The translations under genes and the position numbers were made by a program. Below, in pieces: positions 52,946 to 64,000 of a DNA stretch of 64,000 nucleotides. The stretch lies in NCBI GenBank assembly GCA_001662655.1, contig KV460207.1. One strand, 5' to 3'. The notes under the pieces were generated by a model, which worked only from the letters and a program-made list of their open reading frames with translations, was not told where the DNA came from and did no database searches. How positions within the stretch are numbered: position 1 is the first letter of the stretch; the number at the start of each line of letters is the position of its first letter. Origin of the DNA: Pseudogymnoascus verrucosus. Its lineage: Eukaryota.

Positions 52946-53284
52946 CTAAGCATTCCTCGTCTGTCCAGCAACGCCCTGGGCAGCCTGCTGCCCCTGTCCC
53001 ACTGCACCTTGAGCAGCCTGTCCCCCCTGTCCCGCTGCGCCCTGGGCTGCCTGGCCGCCCTGTCCGGTTGCTCCTCCTACAAGCCCACCAACTGTGTTCG
53101 TTGCTCCACCAGCGATGTTCCCAACACCCCTCGTGGTCTGTCCGACGGCCTGTCCTGCGCCATCGACTGTCTGCCCAACGGCGCCTGTTACACTGCCGAG
53201 AAGTCCACCCTTTCCTTGTGCCTCGTCACCACCGGTAAGGGTGTTGTCAAGCGAGTTGGTAAGGTTTCCTAGGAGTCCAGCCAT
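52946..53284 (-). CDS. Small Gly/Gln/Ala-rich LEA-like protein (112 aa)
   Basis: ATG in CTCAAAATGG context after an AC-rich leader; repeats GQTVDGAGQAVGQTT and GQGGQAAQGA x3; TTAAAT upstream. Confidence 0.8.
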   Translation of the reverse strand: MAGLLGNLTNSLDNTLTGGDEAQGKGGLLGSVTGAVGQTVDGAGQAVGQTTRGVGNIAGGATNTVGGLVGGATGQGGQAAQGAAGQGGQAAQGAVGQGQQAAQGVAGQTRNA

Positions 53285-54805
53285 TTTGAGTAGTGTTTTG
53301 AGTTTTGAGGTGTTGGTTTGTGGATTGGTTTCGTTTGGTTTGGTTTGTTGTGAGGAAGTGATAGGTATGTTGCGAGTGTTTGTGAGTGATAGTGACTGTT
53401 CTCGTTGATGGAAGGGAGGGGATTTAAGTACCCATTCGGATATTCTATTCCTCCAAGGCGAACCTGGCCGAGCTGAGGGAATGACGAGATATCCAGAATC
53501 TGTCGTCATAACCTCTTCCCATCCCTTCAATATCGAAGTATCTCCATGCTTCTCTACATCATTGTCCAAGCTTCACATCCCAGGAAGTACCCTCACCAGC
53601 CACACCTGGCCATAACCTGACTTGCGTTCGCCCCGCATGTCTCGGCAACACGGCAGCACGAAAGGCGGGATGGCAACCTGCTAATGCGCCGTATGTCCCG
53701 CGTCGACCTTCCCTGGCGGCGAGTCAATGTTGGATATTAGTTGACGATCGGAATGTCAGAGGCGGGGTTTGCGCAGCCACAGAAGGCCTCGCCAACGTTG
53801 TTATACTCTACGGCACAGTGTATGTATGATGTCAAAGTGGAGGGCAGCTGCCTGGCCATGGTTGAAAGGCAGGGAAGGGCGCATATGGTGACACTTGTTG
53901 TTGGCGATCTCCCCATATATCCTCCACATTGTGTGCCTGTCGTGGTTGCACAGCTTGCGTGGCTAACTGACTAGTTGCTTCCGCAGAGTCCTTCTTCAGA
54001 GTCTGGACAAGAAGACATTGCGTCGATCGCGGCACATATCTACGTTCCTCTTTCCGCCCCTTGTAAGTGACTCGTAAACAATATACTTACAGTGTGTAAT
54101 GTATTACTACCTACACCCCCTCATACTAGTATGACGATGCTCAACCAGGGCGAGAGCGATATGTGGGGATTGTTGAAACGCCTCTGTGGGGCAAGCCACA
54201 CAGTTGTGGGGCACCACATGGCAGCGAAGCGAATTACAAGCGTGGTCGTGAAATTAAGGTTCTTAGCGCTTCGGTGCTATTTTGGTTAGCGAACCACTAA
54301 TCAATACTGGGTTTTAGTGGGGCACAGAGTATGTAATAATACAAGAAACCGGTTTCTAGATAGCTAGCAATACGTGGCATCGGGCCAACATTGAGTTATT
54401 GACCCGGATGATTAAGATATTAGATATTTTGTGTGAATATTATGGCGGTACGGTTAACGGGTTGCGCTTTGGTGGGAGAACGCAGAGAGGAAGTTGTTAG
54501 CGATTTGTACTATATTTCAGAGTAGCGAAAATAAAATAAATTTACATGGTAAATTGAATTAATATTTTGTAGTGAGAAATCCCATTACTTTTTTTGCGGA
54601 AGAGGTGAAATATTACTTTGTGAAATTAGGGTATTATTTATTCTTAATCCTCCACAGTAGGAAACAATATATATCGCCGTTACTTGGGATATTTAAATAA
54701 GACATAACTCGGTGCCCATGAGCTCATCCTAATGCCCAGAAAATGCCAATACGATTACAGATGTGCGTAAACTACAGTGCGCCGTTGAAACTCCAGATAT
54801 TATTC

Positions 54806-55772
54806 TCATTCCCTTCGCCGAATTAGCAAATTCATCAGGTCTAGGTCGGCATACAAGAGAAACTCACAAGAAGGTAATCGTCACGTCCCCCTTTATAGCG
54901 GCTTTAAAGAAGACTTCAATCTCAAGATTGATGTCTAACCGTATAGATATCGGCTTCGGCTTTTCTGTCTTCTCCCCTTCTCCGCCCCCTTTCTCGTCCG
55001 CATTCTTTTTCTTGGCCCCCTCCGCCTCTTCTCCCCGATCAATCGATATCCCAATCGGCGGCCCCTCACCCCGTAGCCTTCTGATATTAAACGCACGAAG
55101 ACCTGTATCAGGCGCCTTTCCCTTATTTTCTTGCGTCGAATTATGGTCCTCCGCTACTGCCTTGCCTTTATCGCTCTTCTCAGGCGGTGGGCTTTGACGG
55201 TGTGGTGCCTCTCGTTGCGGCGACGCTGCTTTTCCTTCCGGAGGACCAGCCATCTCCTCTCCCAATCTTCCCACCCTCTCAGACCACGGAACTTGCGCCT
55301 TGGCCACGGCCGCCATACCTCCCTTCTTCTTCTTCCGCCGTTCTCTCTTATAACTGCGCGGTCGCGACGACGACGCGACAGACGCGTTATCCGACATCTC
55401 GCCCGGTTTTGACATCTCCTTCTTTTCTTTCTGCCCATTTACTTGTCCTGCAGGTAAATCTTCGAGCCCGCTCATCCCCTCATCTAGTCTCTCTGACCAC
55501 GGCAAACGCGCCTCTTGCGCCGGCGCCATGCGACTGTTCTTCTTACGACCACCACGACGGTGTCGGCGCGAGGATCCGATGGACGCATCGTCCGAGACTT
55601 CGCCTACGCGTGTCGTTGGCGGGATCGCTTGGTTCTGGGCAGGAAGGGCTGGTTCGTTGATTTTGAGGTTTCGTAGTGCCTGGTCGGGGGTGCCATCGTT
55701 GGCCATACTGGGCGAGTTTCGTGGGCGCCCGGTATTGGATCGTCGGGTTTGAATGGGAGATTGGGAGCTCAT
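54806..55772 (-). CDS. Disordered basic protein with C-terminal amphipathic beta motif (ISIRLDINLEIEVFFKAAIKGDVTITFLE)
   Basis: Long ORF; probable terminal intron 54867-54813 (GTGAGT..CTAAT..AAG) adds E*; internal duplicated SDxASxxSS...PWSER unit; start could be further upstream. Confidence 0.78.
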
Positions 55773-55950
55773 TTGCAGGGGGGTTGTTTGTTGAGTTGGG
55801 AGCGCCAGGCAAGATGGCGTCGTGGGATAGAAAGTTCCGAGGCCAGAATCGATTTTGCGTTTGCGTGATCGACGTGGATCATGGGAGGGCCTTTTTCGCG
55901 TTCTATTCAAGTAGGGGCGTTGTTCCTTGCGGGATGTGGGTCTACGAGCG

Positions 55951-56075
55951 GGTACCTGGTATTTTGCCTCCCTAGATAGCTATGTACATGTTACATGTTA
56001 CATAGCTATCTAGGGAGGCAAAATATACATGTTACATGTTACATAGCTATCTAGGGAGGCAAAATACCAGGTACC
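55951..56075. repeat. Perfect 36-bp inverted repeat with an internal 41-bp tandem duplication
   Basis: 55951-55986 is the reverse complement of 56040-56075; 55985-56025 equals 56026-56066. Confidence 0.92.
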
Positions 56076-56409
56076 ATGGGAGAGAAGAGAGTCTGCATAA
56101 GTCGGCTGCAGTGCGGAAGGCCAGGACAGTAACTCTCGACACATTTTCCATTAACATCTAACTATTGTGATGTCTAGTCCTCGTACATATATGGTTTCGT
56201 GGTGACATCACAATATGCAGCTAGTTTACCCGGGCTCGGCAGAGTGAAACACCGGTACTTTAGCACGATTTGCTTGTAACTATGTAACTAAAAATACAGG
56301 CCCTGATTCCCACCCCCCTCATCGTTGTTGCAATTATTCTCTCCATGAACACCAAACCCAAACCTAAAAATCCCACATCATATATCCTTTCTTCCCCTGT
56401 GATATCATG

Positions 56410-56538
56410 GCCGCGTAACTCTATTACTAAATACCCACAACGCAGGACCGGCAGCTCTCACAGAAGGCCAATCGCCGCGTAGCTCTATTACTTAACACCC
56501 ACAACACAGGACCAGCAGCTCTCACAGAAGGCCAATCG
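56410..56538. repeat. 64-bp tandem duplication covering the end and 3' UTR of the distal terminal exon
   Basis: GCCGCGTA.CTCTATTACT.AA.ACCCACAAC.CAGGACC.GCAGCTCTCACAGAAGGCCAATC occurs twice with a few mismatches. Confidence 0.85.
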
Positions 56539-56586
56539 TCACGTCTCCCTTCACTCTAGCGTAGAGGTCAACCTGAGGCAAAGTTA

Positions 56587-57121
56587 CTACATTAATCCAA
56601 TGGTAACATCTCCCTTCACGCGAGCGTATAAATCTACCTGTGGTGGGAATTAGCCATTGAATTTGAATTCAATGGTAACTAGGGGTTCCTGGGGGTTGGG
56701 GATAGACCTACCTCAACTTCGAGATCCAGCTCGATCTTGATCTTCAAGCTGCTGTCCCGCGTTTCCTTTGACACTGGGCGGTCCTTGATGCGTGACTCTC
56801 GGATTGCGCCTGTTGGCCCGCCCATATTGCCCGTTAGACGCTGCTGATCGTTTGCCGGTATCATCTGTTGGTTTTGGTATTGAGGAGCTGGGGGCTCGTT
56901 CTGGCTGCGGTTTTGGCGCGCTCGTTGCATGGTGCGTTGGCCTTTGGGTTGCGCCGGGACAGGCTGCTGTTGCTGTTGTTGTTGTTGTTGTTGTGGCTCT
57001 TCTTCAGTCTCTGAGTGGACATCGTCACTGGCATAATCGGCGTTTTGCTTTTCGCTTGGGGAGAGACGGTCAGCACAGGTGCGCTGGTGAGAACGAGAGA
57101 ACTTGCTTACTTTTCAGACAT
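56587..57121 (-). CDS. PolyQ disordered protein with C-terminal beta motif SSLKIKIELDLEVE-VDLYARVKGDVTIGLM; alternative terminal exon at 56572-56522
   Basis: Exons 57121-57111, about 57054-56712, 56637-56587 with canonical splice signals; tail paralogous to the neighbouring gene. Confidence 0.85.
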
Positions 57122-57904: not shown

Positions 57905-58760
57905 ATGGTTCTCGGAATTATCACCTCAATAGCTGCGTGTCCCGCCATAATTGGCACGACAGAAGCTATCCGGCAAGGCCAGCGCCAGAATGCGCGTGAG
58001 CAGCATCGCGGGCGAAAATCCAATCTCCTTGTATCCTGCTCCGATCCTTCACGGAAAGCAAGGGATATCAACGGAGGAACCATTGTGCTACGGAACAACA
58101 AAGTAAGGAACCCCATCGCAAGTCTGCAGAAAACCTCAAACGAAGACTGACGAAGGCGCGCTTGGTTAGCTCTATGTCACCACCGTGAGCCCCCGTGGCA
58201 GGGCCGCAAAAGAAAGGAGAGAATACGAAAACGAGAAGGATCCAGGCCGATTAAATGAGCGCGGCCATCTTTTTGCTGGCTATTTCTTTGGATATCCAGA
58301 CACAAAATGGGGCCGCCGAGGGGATGGTCTTGTGTCTACAATCTCCGATGACCCCCCTCAGCTGAACTGGATATATGTGGACAAAGACACATACGAAGTG
58401 AAATATGGCCTACGCGTTCAGGCAGAGGGAAACCTTGTTGGGCCGTGGAACTGCACGCCAATTGATAAACGGTTAACACTGGAAGGGTGGGAAGGGTTTA
58501 CGGTTGTAGAAGAGGAGGAGGATGTATGGGCACTGTATTTTGACAAGGATGATGATGGGCTAGAGGAGAAGGTAGAGCCGAATAGGAGGATTATGGAGAT
58601 TGAGTTGATAAGGAAAGAGATGAGGATAGGGAAGGAGGAAGTGGATATGGCGGAGCAAGAAGAGAAGTTACGGAATGGAAACGAGGTGAAGAACAAAAGG
58701 AAAGGTGGGGAGAACGAAGAGAAGAATGAGAAAGATAAGAACAGTACTCGTGCGGCATAG
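57905..58760 (+). CDS. Hypothetical protein with globular aromatic-rich domain; exons 57905-58102, 58170-58760
   Basis: MVLGIITSIAACPAIIGTTEAIRQGQ..., GHLFAGYFFGYP, GLVSTISDDPPQLNWIYVDKDTYEVKYG, GPWNCT, EGWEGF, WALYFDKDDDGL; phase-0 intron. Confidence 0.85.
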
Positions 58761-60127: not shown

Positions 60128-61429
60128 CTACTGCTGCGACGCCCCCGGAATCTTGATCGTTACAGTTGTTCCTTCCTTCGTCGTCTGCACATTGATCTCT
60201 ATCCCATTCGCAGTAATCCCAATACCTCCACCCCCGCCGCTCTGAAGCACAGTAGAATTTCCCGCTACACGACTCGAACCCGCTCCCTTCGTATCTCCAT
60301 CGCCATTACGAACATCCACCTGAGAAACATCGAGCGTATCCGTATCGTCTCCAAAGACCGCATCAGGCTTCGCAACGAGATCCTCGAGGAGACCCGGGAC
60401 CTTTTCTCCTGTTGTGCCGCCAGCTACAGGTGTAATCTTCTGTTCCTTGTGTTTACTGCCCTTGGTTGGCTTTGACGCGTTGTTTGTGGAGATAGGAGCA
60501 GGGTTGTTTGCTTCGTCGTTCGTACTTCCTAACGGTGCTGAAAAGCTATCGCTATGCTCATTTTGCATATCCTGTTCCCCATCTGTGACATAACCATGTC
60601 CCCCTTCGCTATGCCCTTCGTAGTCTTCATCTATATCGTCATCGTGGGGTTCGTGTTCCCCATCCCAATCGCTACCTGCTTCATTATGGCCCTCTTCCTC
60701 GCTATATCCAAGCTCGGGCTCTTCTTCATTGCCTGATTCTTCGTGGTAGTTATTTTTGTTTTCTTCGTCTTCATTATCTTTATGTTCCACTTCATCATGA
60801 TCAGATACAGCCTCATATTCGCGCTCCGGTTCTTGTTCTAGTTCGGGAGGTGGAGGCGCGGGCTTCTTCCTCTTCACCGACTTTGGTGTTTCTCCAAAGT
60901 CGAGATCCAGTGCCTTGAACTTTGGCGTCCGCTTTTCAACATCGTTTTGAAAATGGTTTGGTTCTTGCAGAGGTTGTGGCGCCTGTTTCTTAACCCTTTT
61001 CACTTCACTTTGAGTTCCATCAACGTGGTCCCGCTTTGCAGTCTCAACATCTACCGGCGGCGAAGTTTTTTTCACTTTCTTAACAGCTGTTTTTGCTGCG
61101 TCCCCCTGACCAGAAGTGGCAGCTTTAAATTTGGGAGGCGGTGCGTCAGTTGTAGGCTGGCGTTTTGAGCTTCGGTCAGGGGTTGGAGTCTGAGGGAGCT
61201 GGTCTTCCAATGACTTGGGCGGCTTTGGCCGTGGTGTCTGCGGAGAAACTGCATTATTTGGCGTCGTAGTGTCTGCTTTTACCTTTTGAGATGGAACACG
61301 CCTTTTTACTACATTTCCTGCATCGGGTTGTGTCGAGGTCATCTTCTTTATTGAGTCTGGAGATTTAGGAGTTCCGTTGGCCTTATCGGTAGGCTTGAGC
61401 GGCGTCCGGGGTGCTTTGGGGCTGGACAT
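60128..61429 (-). CDS. Large disordered Pro/Lys-rich then acidic protein with C-terminal beta-hairpin-like tail (GIEINVQTTKEGTTVTIKIP); may extend to 61702
   Basis: Open frame of more than 430 codons with a biased but protein-like composition; start ambiguous (61429 vs 61702). Confidence 0.7.
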   Translation of the reverse strand: MSSPKAPRTPLKPTDKANGTPKSPDSIKKMTSTQPDAGNVVKRRVPSQKVKADTTTPNNAVSPQTPRPKPPKSLEDQLPQTPTPDRSSKRQPTTDAPPPKFKAATSGQGDAAKTAVKKVKKTSPPVDVETAKRDHVDGTQSEVKRVKKQAPQPLQEPNHFQNDVEKRTPKFKALDLDFGETPKSVKRKKPAPPPPELEQEPEREYEAVSDHDEVEHKDNEDEENKNNYHEESGNEEEPELGYSEEEGHNEAGSDWDGEHEPHDDDIDEDYEGHSEGGHGYVTDGEQDMQNEHSDSFSAPLGSTNDEANNPAPISTNNASKPTKGSKHKEQKITPVAGGTTGEKVPGLLEDLVAKPDAVFGDDTDTLDVSQVDVRNGDGDTKGAGSSRVAGNSTVLQSGGGGGIGITANGIEINVQTTKEGTTVTIKIPGASQQ

Positions 61430-62979
61430 CGTGAATAGATCTTTAATACATAGTGTAGTGATAGCTAGAACTGCTAATATCCCAATGGTAATTTGAATAG
61501 TTGTTGGAGATGTTAAAAGATACCACAAGACAATCGTAGATATATAGAGGACGAGACTGATCACACTATCACTATCACGGGCCGCTAAGAAGGAGAACTG
61601 AGGTGATATCTTTCGTGTGATGAGGCTGCTACTCATCGCCATGAGAAGACTAGGTAAGAGCCGTAGAATTGTGGATAGAAGTTGACTTACAGGTTGGGAC
61701 ATACGATTTACTCATCATGTCCACTACTATTTCGTCACTTCACAGCGGTAAACTAGCCACTCGGAAGCACTGCAGGGGTTGCAGGAATACCTGCATGGTT
61801 CTAATGCCGCAGGTCTCGAGAACCGGTTTCCGAACAAAACCATGTTCACATCTCCAAGGTCAGGACGAATACTACGGTCCATATTAACAAACTAAAATCG
61901 AATGCTTAAAGTGATGTACCAGTACCACTGTATCCTCCCTACCACTCGTCATAACAGGTTCTTTAAGGCCGCCATACCGCCGTTCTTGATCGTCACGGAA
62001 TTGCTAAAACATGGCATATCCACCAGGGGGTAACCAGGGAAAGTCTTGCCGTTACCACGTTGTTTGTCGTGGATCTATTCATAGGGTGTGGCGATAAGCA
62101 AGTGGTGCGCCACATTTTTTGGCGATCAGTGCGGGGGTCTGCGCTAGGAGGTTGTCGTGGAGACGAAAGTTAAGTAATTGCTCCACATAAGCATCTGGCT
62201 AGAATACTTGCAATCGCAGGTACTAAATATCCTTATCAGGCCCCAGCCGTAGGAGATGAGCAGTTCCACTATAAGGGTGAGTCTAGACTAGTAACCAAAA
62301 GTCGAGGCAACCAAGGTCTAGGGGATTACGGGCTCGAGACTGAATCGTGACTAGGAACAAAATGGGCACTGAAACAGCAAGAATGATCTCAATGTGTAGG
62401 ATAAAGGCGGCATTGTCTATGTGGCTGGAAACCCCGCACTAGCTACGGGCTATGCAAGCCACAAGGTTTGTAGCTACATTAAATGCAGATACATATTAAT
62501 AGGGCCCAAAAATCATGATCTACTCCCTGCATGTGGGCTATCATGATGTGGATCTATCAAGGTTGCACTGTGGGTGTGGCACCCTCTTCTCTCTATCATG
62601 GATTCTAGCACATTGCACGCGTCTAAAGAAGCTCTGGTCGCTTCTTTTATGACGTCTCTGACGCCATTACAGGGCAAATATAGGGTAGAACAGGGATTTA
62701 ACAAGCATCTAGATCAATTGATGTGATGTCACTCAACCAGATTCTTAGAACTTGAAAGCCTCGTGGCGAAAAGGAAAGGCTAGTTGTTATCATCGAGGCG
62801 GACTTCATAAGAAGGCGTGGGCTCATCACCTAACACACTTATCATAAAACTTCAACCAAACGCACACAGCTACGAAACAACTACTGTACGAACCTATTAT
62901 ACCATATACACGCCACATTACTCATAGCTACAACATAACTTATACTTTGAGCTCTACATTTATAAAACAAGTGGCAAAC

Positions 62980-64000
62980 ATGACGGACGTTAAGCAGCAC
63001 TCGTTCAACCCTTCGCAGAAGTCTGGATTCGACGGCTCTGTAAAGAACATACAAAAGAAGACATCAGAGACTCAAGAGCAAGCACCTAGCGAAGTCGACG
63101 ATGTAGAGAGCCGTGCGGGCACAGAGTCTGTGGGAGGCGAGTCGCAGGCCATACAAGCAGGAAGCGTCGATAACGAAGGACATGTTATTGACGCCGATGG
63201 TCACATCATCGGGAACGTCACAGGGGAGAATGCATCACAGCTTGAGGGGTCTATCGTAGATCAACAGGGTGATGTGATAGATACCGAAGGAAATGTCATT
63301 GGAAGTGCGGAGCCACAGGAAGCCGGTGAAGCAGAAACCCCCGAGAAAGATCTTCCGGACGTATCAATCCTTGAGGGAAAGAAGGTAAACAAGGGAGGAA
63401 ACGTCGTTGACGACAGCGGCAAACTATATGGACGTATCGTCGACGGGGATATTTCTAAGTTGGTTGGAAAGAAGGTGGATTCCAGAGGAAAAATCTGGAA
63501 CGATTCAGGAAAAGTCATTGGAAGCGCGGAAGTGATACCCATCGATGAACGAGATGAGTCCTCTGGTGCACCCTTCGAAGATTTTCCCAATGCCGTCGTC
63601 AACAAGGACGGAACCGTCGCCTCGGATGGCCAGGTAGTTGGGAAGCTCGTTGACGGCGACGCTAAGAAACTCTCTGGCAAGAAGGTCGACAAGGATGGCG
63701 AGGTCATTGATAACGTCGGGAACGTTGTAGGAAAGGCTGAGCGATGGGAAGAAGAAGATGCCCCTGAGCCAGAAGCGGCCGATTTATCTTCTTTAGCTGG
63801 CAAGCGAGTGAATAAGCTAGGTAACGTGGTGGATGGCACAGGTGCCATCTATGGAAGACTCGTTGAAGGCGATCCCAAGAAGCTCGCAGGGAGGATGTGC
63901 GATAAGAACGGAGATGTTAGAGGCGAAGGTGGCGATGTTGTCGGCCGCGCTGAATTGGTTCCCGAGAGCGAGCGTGAAGGCATGAAGCAGGGACCATTTG
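62980..64000 (+). CDS. DUF3659-repeat ('LEA domain') protein, truncated by the window end
   Basis: Open frame from ATG 62980 with no stop, so absent from the ORF track; repeated LxGKxVNKxGNVVDxxGxxYGRxVxGDxxKLxGxxxDxxGxIxxxxGxVIGxAE units. Confidence 0.88.
   Translation, partial: MTDVKQHSFNPSQKSGFDGSVKNIQKKTSETQEQAPSEVDDVESRAGTESVGGESQAIQAGSVDNEGHVIDADGHIIGNVTGENASQLEGSIVDQQGDVIDTEGNVIGSAEPQEAGEAETPEKDLPDVSILEGKKVNKGGNVVDDSGKLYGRIVDGDISKLVGKKVDSRGKIWNDSGKVIGSAEVIPIDERDESSGAPFEDFPNAVVNKDGTVASDGQVVGKLVDGDAKKLSGKKVDKDGEVIDNVGNVVGKAERWEEEDAPEPEAADLSSLAGKRVNKLGNVVDGTGAIYGRLVEGDPKKLAGRMCDKNGDVRGEGGDVVGRAELVPESEREGMKQGPF

Follow-up and report, generated by a model that had tools for sequence, protein, structure and literature searches.

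We have analysed a stretch of 64,000 nucleotides (nt) from contig KV460207.1 of the fungus Pseudogymnoascus verrucosus (assembly GCA_001662655.1), hereafter the window, to which all coordinates refer. Two genes located head-to-tail on its minus strand, A and B, encode proteins that end in the same kind of sequence, a stretch of 28 residues in which hydrophobic and charged amino acids alternate (here called the tail). An original prediction, made from the letters of the window alone, had pointed to this shared C-terminus and had read it as a possible polymerisation module. The parts of the two genes that are needed for the following analysis are:

Gene B, exon 1: 57111..57121, minus strand, ATGTCTGAAAA (MSE plus 2 nt)
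Gene B, intron 1: 57110..57055, minus strand, 56 nt
Gene B, exon 2: 56712..57054, minus strand, ending in ...SSLKIKIELDLEVE, present in RNA contigs
Gene B, proximal last exon (copy 1): 56587..56637, minus strand, VDLYARVKGDVTIGLM (56637..56590) followed by the stop codon TAG (56589..56587)
Gene B, distal last exon (copy 2): 56522..56572, minus strand, VDLYARVKGDVTIGLL (56572..56525) followed by TGA and preceded by CCTCAG
Gene B, tandem duplication of 64 nt: 56407..56534, minus strand, in the 3' untranslated region (UTR), two units that are 91% alike
Gene A (A-type): 54864..55772, minus strand, continuous open reading frame (ORF) of 302 amino acids ending in ...TFL, with the stop codon TGA at 54866..54864
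Gene A, tail: 54867..54950, minus strand, the last 28 codons (ISIRLDINLEIEVFFKAAIKGDVTITFL), then TGA
Gene A, predicted terminal intron: 54867..54813, minus strand, 55 nt, GTGAGT...AAG, followed by G-GAA-TGA ending at 54806

The coding part of gene A runs from 55772 to 54867, with an alternative start at MANDG (compare the orthologue P0004). Exon 2 of gene B ends in ...LKIKIELDLEVE at position 56712, and residues 1-12 of the tail are encoded by 56747..56712, placing the boundary between this exon and the alternative last exons between tail residues 12 and 13.

The tails of the two proteins can be aligned without gaps over 28 residues (BLASTP, 12/28 identities, 21/28 positives, E 2e-7), as had been claimed, and both peptides are present as they had been written, the final E of the one in gene A requiring the predicted terminal intron of 55 nt. 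No other significant segment was found between proteins A and B (BLASTP, next best E 4.2). The near-strict alternation described for them was also recovered. In gene B it is strict over positions 1-20 (10 aliphatic residues at the odd and 10 polar residues at the even positions), an arrangement that has a chance of 2/184756 in a random order of the same composition, and in gene A it is near-strict, F and A occupying two of the even positions. A 9-residue alternating pattern occurs six times in all six frames of the 64-kilobase (kb) window, and three of these occurrences are accounted for by the tails themselves and by the antisense of one tail. The bodies that precede the tails had been called otherwise unrelated and disordered, in agreement with the BLASTP comparison on the one hand and with the AlphaFold2 models described below on the other. 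One qualification is a short basic motif that is found upstream of the tail in both families (TGIRAFNxKRA in A and GAIRESRIKDRP in B), and the IR...IK cores of the A- and B-type bodies may be related. Other motifs are conserved within the bodies of each type, namely DYSD..S...RR.QRGGRK, (L)PWSER.GRL and TGIRAFN.KRA..SGGRP.G in the A-type and GQRTMQRA, together with GAIRESRIKDRP, in the B-type.

In order to describe the conservation of the tail we have used column statistics over 139 distinct 28-mers. The consensus is [LVI]-x-I-[KR]-[IL]-[ED]-L-[DN]-L-E-[VLI]-E-[VI]-x-L-x-A-[RK]-[VI]-K-G-D-[VI]-T-I-[GT]-[LF]-[LM]. Aliphatic residues fill the odd positions (L/V, I, I/L, L, L, V, V/I, L, A, V/I, and then G21, V, I, L/F) and polar or charged residues the even ones (K/S, K/R, E/D, D/N, E, E, x, x, R/K, K, D22, T, G/T, L/M). 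Conservation extends to both faces, the mean entropy over positions 1-20 being 0.87 at the odd and 1.21 at the even positions. The residues E12, A17, G21 and D22 are nearly invariant and the greatest variation is found at positions 14 and 16.

A tail of this degree of conservation has no name in the databases. Pfam yielded nothing above the curated cut-off in 102 proteins (gene A, gene B exon 2 and 100 relatives), and a tail profile of 35 columns matched 0 sequences of the PDB at E<=10. The caveat attached to the original prediction, that the motif might map to a known globular domain or targeting signal, thus found no echo in either collection. In the ESM Atlas only unnamed 'hypothetical protein' clusters matched. 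Strings of the tail motif are absent from the open literature text (supplements not covered), the sole string match being an unrelated bacterial paper; the locus tags of four named orthologues have no mention in the open literature, and a literature search on the concept gave nothing relevant among the 15 listed of 27. A likeness to alpha-crystallin-domain strands or to the 'cylindrin' peptide was considered and dropped after Pfam gave no HSP20 match at E<=10.

The profile, which was built from eight tails, was searched with HMMER over 1.84 billion cluster representatives. It matched 856 of them at E<=1e-3 and 163 at E<=1e-10, with E-values down to 9e-17, and the details that follow come from the best 150 of these 856 matches. 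The match extends to the final or penultimate residue of the protein in 140 of the 150, and the remaining ten mostly resemble read-through or intron-retaining gene models. A word-index search, which under-reports the family, retrieved 22 proteins with the gene A tail, mostly close orthologues. The named matches to gene A in that search were from Pseudogymnoascus, plus one Cudoniella protein, and one partial protein was obtained among shorter proteins; exon 2 of gene B gave 326 proteins at E<=1 among 357 candidates, with the named ones belonging to Leotiomycetes and Onygenales. Judged by sequence, the bodies that carry the tail belong to at least four unrelated disordered types:

Body type A: 115-435 amino acids, ending in ...IRLDLNLELEIFLRAKIKGDVTITFL(E), named members only in Leotiomycetes
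Body type B: about 110-140 amino acids, ending in ...RESRIKDRP...SSLKIKIELDLEVEVDLYARVKGDVTIGLM, in Leotiomycetes, Onygenales and Exophiala (Chaetothyriales)
Body type C: ending in ...EVEVHLTARIKGDITIGLL, in two Dothideomycetes
Body type D: ending in ...EVEVELWARVKGDVTIGLL

Further variants of the tail appear in metagenome loci (for example ...VRLDMDLDVEVELKAKIQGDITLSIL). The classes covered, with the taxonomy taken from the few named proteins, are Leotiomycetes, Eurotiomycetes and Dothideomycetes, and the locus tags V498_04441, V498_04445 and V498_10567 suggest that single Pseudogymnoascus strains have at least three tail genes. The terminal position in 140 of the best 150 of 856 matches and the minimum of four body types bear out, well beyond the two genes of the window, the idea of a terminal module shared by different disordered bodies. 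On these comparisons, the tail is to be regarded as an ancient and strongly constrained C-terminal module of filamentous ascomycetes, carried by several unrelated disordered bodies.

Prokaryotic occurrence was considered and rejected, since a pattern scan of 185,579 genomes gave only two weak partial matches, both antisense to dnaJ and attributable to chance. In these two cases (L062:1001-1066 and L063:1001-1072) the antisense of the dnaJ region that encodes ...GDLYLEIKV... reads RLDLDLEVEV; false matches to the tail motif arise in this manner because an alternating hydrophobic/charged coding sequence gives an alternating antisense frame. Such antisense patterns, together with the low complexity of the bodies, are what could be said in favor of a tail without function, a chance or low-complexity resemblance or an artefact of annotation. 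This reading is refuted by the pairwise E of 2e-7, the profile E-values down to 9e-17, a ratio of non-synonymous to synonymous differences (pN/pS) of about 0.05-0.08, the presence of spliced transcripts in RNA contigs and the conservation of the splice signals around the tail exons (the latter three are described below), and we give it practically no credence.

Transcript evidence was obtained from contigs of public RNA-type runs aligned to the window, two of which (X2 and X3) belong to one study and come from a related strain. Gene B is transcribed and spliced, with spliced contigs in three runs and the join of intron 1 in a fourth one, a soil RNA library. The join of intron 1 (57054/57111) is seen in X5 (27-nt side); X3 has it at 57053/57111, with one extra letter, and a contig of X1 has a loose end at 57054 that reads into exon 1. 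Copy 1 of the last exon is reached through an intron of 74 nt (56711..56638), the join of which is present in X1 (55-nt side) and in X2 and X3 (32-nt side); it is placed at 56633/56708, with an ambiguity of 6 letters that gives the same messenger RNA (mRNA). For gene A, the region 54903..55901 is covered without gaps, in pieces, by contigs of X2 and X3.

Copy 2 starts 14 bases downstream of the stop codon of copy 1 and is reached from the same donor through an intron of 139 nt (56711..56573). The two copies share 73% of their nucleotides, and the sole residue change between them is M to L at the very end (...GLM versus ...GLL). The join of exon 2 to copy 2 (a skip of 139 nt, with GT..AG on the gene strand) was found in one contig each of X2 and X3, with a shorter side of 26 nt. 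These contigs might still stem from a paralogue, and the comparative evidence is the stronger one. Of 51 B-type loci, one being that of the window and 50 coming from metagenomes, 34 have both copies; in these two-copy loci copy 1 invariably ends in GLM and copy 2 in GLL, with TAG or CAG in front of copy 2 in every case. The Val codon at the donor is GTA (GAG/GTAGA) in all 30 two-copy loci that have the donor at E12/V13 and in 1 of 17 single-copy loci, counts that are not phylogenetically independent. In three loci the intron is displaced by two codons, both acceptors completing the same Leu codon. In locus L007:1400-1800 copy 2 is split by an intron of its own (GTATGT...CAG) after ...VDLYAR, showing that copy 2 belongs to a spliced coding region. 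The proportions of synonymous (pS) and non-synonymous (pN) differences between copy 1 and copy 2 are 0.76 and 0.06 (22 distinct pairs), and pN/pS is 0.078 among 20 distinct copy-2 sequences. The conservation of splice signals across loci and these selection figures, taken together, establish copy 2 as coding sequence.

An optional intron of 56-78 nt contains copy 1 with its stop codon in most species, the unspliced form ending in ...GLM and the spliced form in ...GLL. The codons for L, M and stop at the end of copy 1 (CTG/TTG ATG TAG/TAA/TGA) contain the string YTGAT, which is separated from the copy-2 acceptor downstream by the stop codon and a further 5-27 nt. Since this is where a branch point is expected, the terminal Met codon may double as branch-site sequence. 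Another candidate intron would follow copy 2, as GT[AG]AG comes after 25 of 29 distinct copies; the extra residues predicted from it are not conserved (R, D, E or none) and the X1 contig is unspliced there. The 64-nt tandem duplication in the 3' UTR re-copies the last 13 nt of copy 2 with its stop codon, and its copy number differs between strains, as contigs of X2 and X3 are without one unit (a skip of 64).

Gene B resembles the known alternative 3'-terminal exons that arose by duplication in its tandem homologous last exons, served by one donor and alternative acceptors, and in the purifying selection that acts on both copies. It differs from them in that the two copies encode almost the same peptide, with the last residue (M or L) as the constant difference, and in that the proximal copy usually lies inside an optional intron, so that retention and splicing lead to equivalent proteins. 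We know of no described case of paired last exons of this kind, although the literature was not searched on the point.

The end of gene A has a different design. The donor of its predicted terminal intron (GTGAGT) shares letters with the last Leu codon and with the stop codon TGA, and it is followed by a branch-like GCTAAT and by the acceptor AAG. The spliced form would end in ...TFLE and the unspliced form in ...TFL, and the database protein P0003 has the E. The RNA contigs stop short of the 3' end of gene A, and the prediction of this intron draws on comparison: among 14 distinct A-type loci, GT is present at the donor in all 14 and the form TT/GT[AG]AGT in 11, and an E-stop (LE and then the stop codon) comes after the intron in 10, the introns measuring 53-61 nt and having a branch-like CT[AG]A[CT]. 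Owing to the paired exons of gene B and the stop-overlapping donor of gene A, both spliced and unspliced mRNAs would end in a working tail.

Linkage of the two genes is also seen outside the window. The A and B tails are about 2-2.5 kb apart, in tandem or convergent, in 8 of 13 A-type metagenome loci, the contigs of the other 5 being too short. B-type loci of other lineages had no A within 6-kb flanks, and in Venustampulla echinocandica the A and B locus tags are far apart. Over 31 nt, stop codon included, gene A at its 3' end shares 81% identity with the 3' end of copy 2 in gene B. This identity, the linkage, and the fact that named A members are confined to Leotiomycetes suggest that the gene A family was probably derived from gene B, by local duplication of its 3' end.

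The surroundings of the two genes contain other repeats and low-complexity proteins. In the spacer between B and A there is a perfect inverted repeat of 36 nt (arms 55951-55986 and 56040-56075) that overlaps a 41-nt tandem duplication (55982-56063), and which could be a hairpin-forming insert or the scar of a small mobile element. An ORF of 524 amino acids (60128-61702, minus strand) has N-terminal hydrophobic segments and a long acidic or basic low-complexity body, and its C-terminal end is a different beta-hairpin-like stretch (...GIEINVQTTKEGTTVTIKIPGASQQ); the ORF has no Pfam match. With it, the window holds two kinds of protein in which a terminal beta element follows a disordered body. 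Another ORF, which runs off the end of the window (62947-63999, plus strand), has four DUF3659 repeats (PF12396, E 5.5e-81), and no Pfam match was obtained for a Gly/Ala/Gln-rich ORF (52946-53569, minus strand) or for the ORF at 58185-58760 (plus strand). The neighbourhood of genes A and B therefore looks rich in low-complexity or repeat proteins.

A way to approach the role of the tail is to ask what structure it might adopt. AlphaFold2 gave no fold for either whole protein. For a B orthologue, modelled with 96 sequences, the mean predicted local distance difference test score (pLDDT) was 57.5, with about 70 in the tail, and for A, modelled with 47 sequences, it was 49.5, with 47-61 in the tail; neither model contains strands. 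Both models show a disordered body and a tail that does not fold on its own. An oligomer model of four copies of residues 84-133 of the B orthologue, run with no alignment and no controls, scored 0.01 versus a mark of 0.32, a value that carries no weight for or against binding.

Monomer models without a fold of their own are among the observations that would be expected if the tail were a docking or address tag, which binds one conserved receptor or structure by beta-strand addition and needs no self-association. The targets of such a tag might be the sheet edge of a folded protein or a cytoskeletal, septal or organelle surface. Exact residues are kept on both faces in three fungal classes, as is typical of a specific interface, the tail is C-terminal in 140 of the best 150 of 856 matches, and several unrelated bodies share it. 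However, no candidate receptor is known, and all the bodies inspected are low-complexity or disordered and none has a Pfam domain, whereas a general tag would be expected on enzymes too. Isoforms in which an E, D or Q is predicted to be added to the C-terminus also argue against recognition of a free carboxylate. We regard this explanation as possible but, on balance, unlikely.

The pairing of tails with one another was explored with a toy score, a count of cross-strand charge and hydrophobic pairs in all registers of two sequences. The best antiparallel register was i+j=26 for B-B, A-A and A-B alike, with 6, 6 and 5 salt bridges, respectively, and 11 hydrophobic pairs each, and the same register was also the best intramolecular hairpin for both tails. 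It places the loop at residues 12-14, beside the variable positions 14 and 16 and at the exon boundary of gene B. Because this register is centred on residue 13, the toy score makes it more likely that KGD lies inside the second strand than at the turn. Two hairpins with a turn near KGD were rejected: with the turn at G-D, a 2-residue turn sets hydrophobic opposite polar residues, and with a 3-residue K-G-D loop (i+j=42) the faces are kept but only about 6 residues are paired, and the register is not among the four best for a hairpin. The in-register parallel arrangement of A-A gives 0 salt bridges and 7 like-charge contacts. The stacked in-register layers (amyloid arches) that formed part of the original prediction are thus disfavored by this simple charge count.

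The same contacts bear on whether the tail could be a prion-like amyloid signalling motif of the type known from HET-s, sigma or PP, with a parallel in-register structure that is templated to the product of the adjacent gene. Like the motifs associated with NOD-like receptors (NLRs), that is HET-s/HRAM, sigma and PP, the tail is a short motif at the end of proteins encoded by adjacent genes of filamentous ascomycetes, with conserved adjacency, and beta-sheet association has been proposed in both cases. Its length of about 28 amino acids is within the range of such motifs, the rungs of PP and HET-s having about 20 or 21 residues (PMC5485727). An NLR with the motif at its N-terminus, adjacent to an effector with a C-terminal copy, is the defining architecture (PMC5485727). 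Here, in contrast, neither an NLR nor a HeLo or lipase effector is present. The two disordered proteins each have their copy at the C-terminus, and each is the neighbor of the other. No HeLo, HeLo-like or lipase domain was found by Pfam upstream of the tail in gene A, gene B exon 2 or 100 relatives; there was no match to a Pfam amyloid-motif family, and none to NACHT, NB-ARC or HeLo in the seven ORFs of >=150 amino acids at 46-64 kb of the window, where spliced genes could be missed. Among the best 150 of 856 matches there was no NLR-sized protein with an N-terminal copy, the longest having 435 amino acids. The tail is strongly charged and strictly alternating, and its charge pattern disfavors in-register parallel stacking with the like-charge contacts counted above. 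Known amyloid signalling motifs, for their part, are rich in G, N and Q. The earlier remark that the tail is unlike HET-s repeats agrees with all of this, and amyloid signalling is largely refuted on architecture, leaving it a very improbable explanation.

The interpretation that we favor, with a probability of roughly 0.4, is that the tail is an amphipathic beta assembly or anchoring tag. The observations on which it builds are those of a constrained, terminal, amphipathic and beta-prone module, found on disordered proteins and transcribed and spliced. Having no fold of its own, the tail would act as an amphipathic beta element, in its likeliest form an antiparallel hairpin or a same-register antiparallel dimer, with residues 1-11 against 15-25 and the loop at 12-14. 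One face would then consist solely of aliphatic residues (L I I L L V / L A V G V I) and the opposite face would hold the paired charges K4-D22, E6-K20 and D8-R18. The aliphatic face would have to be buried, most simply against other tails or else on a hydrophobic surface, and the packing of tails could lead to self- and co-assembly of the A-, B- and other types into small oligomers, tapes or a gel-like brush, with the disordered and highly charged or Q-rich bodies displayed outward. In this manner a single structure would be built from various disordered proteins through their common tail.

Natural proteins rarely contain long strictly alternating polar/non-polar patterns, which drive beta-sheet self-assembly in designed peptides, as reported in the binary-pattern work of Hecht and colleagues and for ionic self-complementary peptides of the EAK16 type. 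With such peptides (EAK16 and RADA16 types, de novo alternating polar/non-polar amyloids) the tail shares strict alternation, blocks of positive and negative charge on one face that can be paired in an antiparallel register, and an aliphatic opposite face, and the combination of hydrophobic/charged alternation with complementary charge blocks was found in its sequence, in the column statistics and in the register count. In contrast to them it is natural, ancient and highly conserved, sits at the C-terminus of long disordered proteins and has an invariant A17, G21 and a G-D pair, and its self-assembly is a proposal.

Several points weigh against an assembly tag. In the AlphaFold2 models the tail lacks secondary structure, with a pLDDT of about 70 in B and 47-61 in A, and the register score is a toy count from two sequences only. 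The positions vary too little for covariation to be informative, and the difference between A and B at paired positions (D8-R18 versus N8-K18) is a single lineage split. A specific conserved binding partner would explain just as well why exact residues are kept on the two faces. A purely self-packing element would not usually have five acidic residues on one side, and there may be tails on folded proteins among the matches beyond the best 150 of 856.

The aliphatic face could also lie on a lipid droplet, a membrane or an air-water interface, in which case the tail would be an amphipathic beta anchor, or several hairpins could form an oligomeric transmembrane beta-barrel whose pore is lined by the charged face. 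The shell with one hydrophobic face that the original prediction mentioned as an option belongs here. Perfect alternation over 20 or more residues with an all-aliphatic face fits such a role, and a hairpin with two strands of about 11 residues would match membrane-spanning beta hairpins in length. On the other side, the hydrophobic face of B-type tails has no aromatics, the polar face is net acidic (five D/E) and would be poor for anionic membranes, the absence of a hydrophobic N-terminus makes the proteins not secreted-looking, and there is no scaffold domain as in pore formers. The gas vesicle protein GvpA and the stems of beta pore-forming toxins have a hairpin of about 2 x 11 residues with one fully hydrophobic face, as in our proposal for the tail. 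They differ from it in that the tail has no flanking helices or scaffold and its protein appears intracellular, and the tail profile found none of them in the PDB search described above (0 matches at E<=10). We consider an interface or membrane element distinctly unlikely.

Returning to the assembly tag, the self-complementary peptides and the amyloid signalling motifs are what the tail comes closest to in function, whereas by membership it belongs to neither of them, nor to any Pfam family. In a more specific and rather doubtful version of the proposal it would be a new fungal 'beta-zipper tag' that spans several classes. As a self-complementary antiparallel hairpin it would bring disordered proteins of unrelated types (A, B, C, D and others) together in one supramolecular material. 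Inside hyphae or spores this material would take the form of a beta assembly or gel that has a function and is not a prion, and its composition might be tuned by splicing, through the C-terminal isoforms with M or L and with or without E.

Nature is generally held to avoid long alternating polar/non-polar stretches as aggregation-prone. The tail described here is kept almost letter for letter across at least three ascomycete classes, at the ends of disordered proteins, and its conservation together with the design of its genes points to a beta-association device that is used and controlled, and that is unnamed in databases. The gene architecture, with its paired last exons and stop-overlapping donor, may be new in its own right, the paired last exons being a clean natural case of a gene design that is robust to splicing. 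The 28-residue peptide provides a handle on how fungi organise their disordered proteins, and it may serve as a self-assembling tag in engineering.

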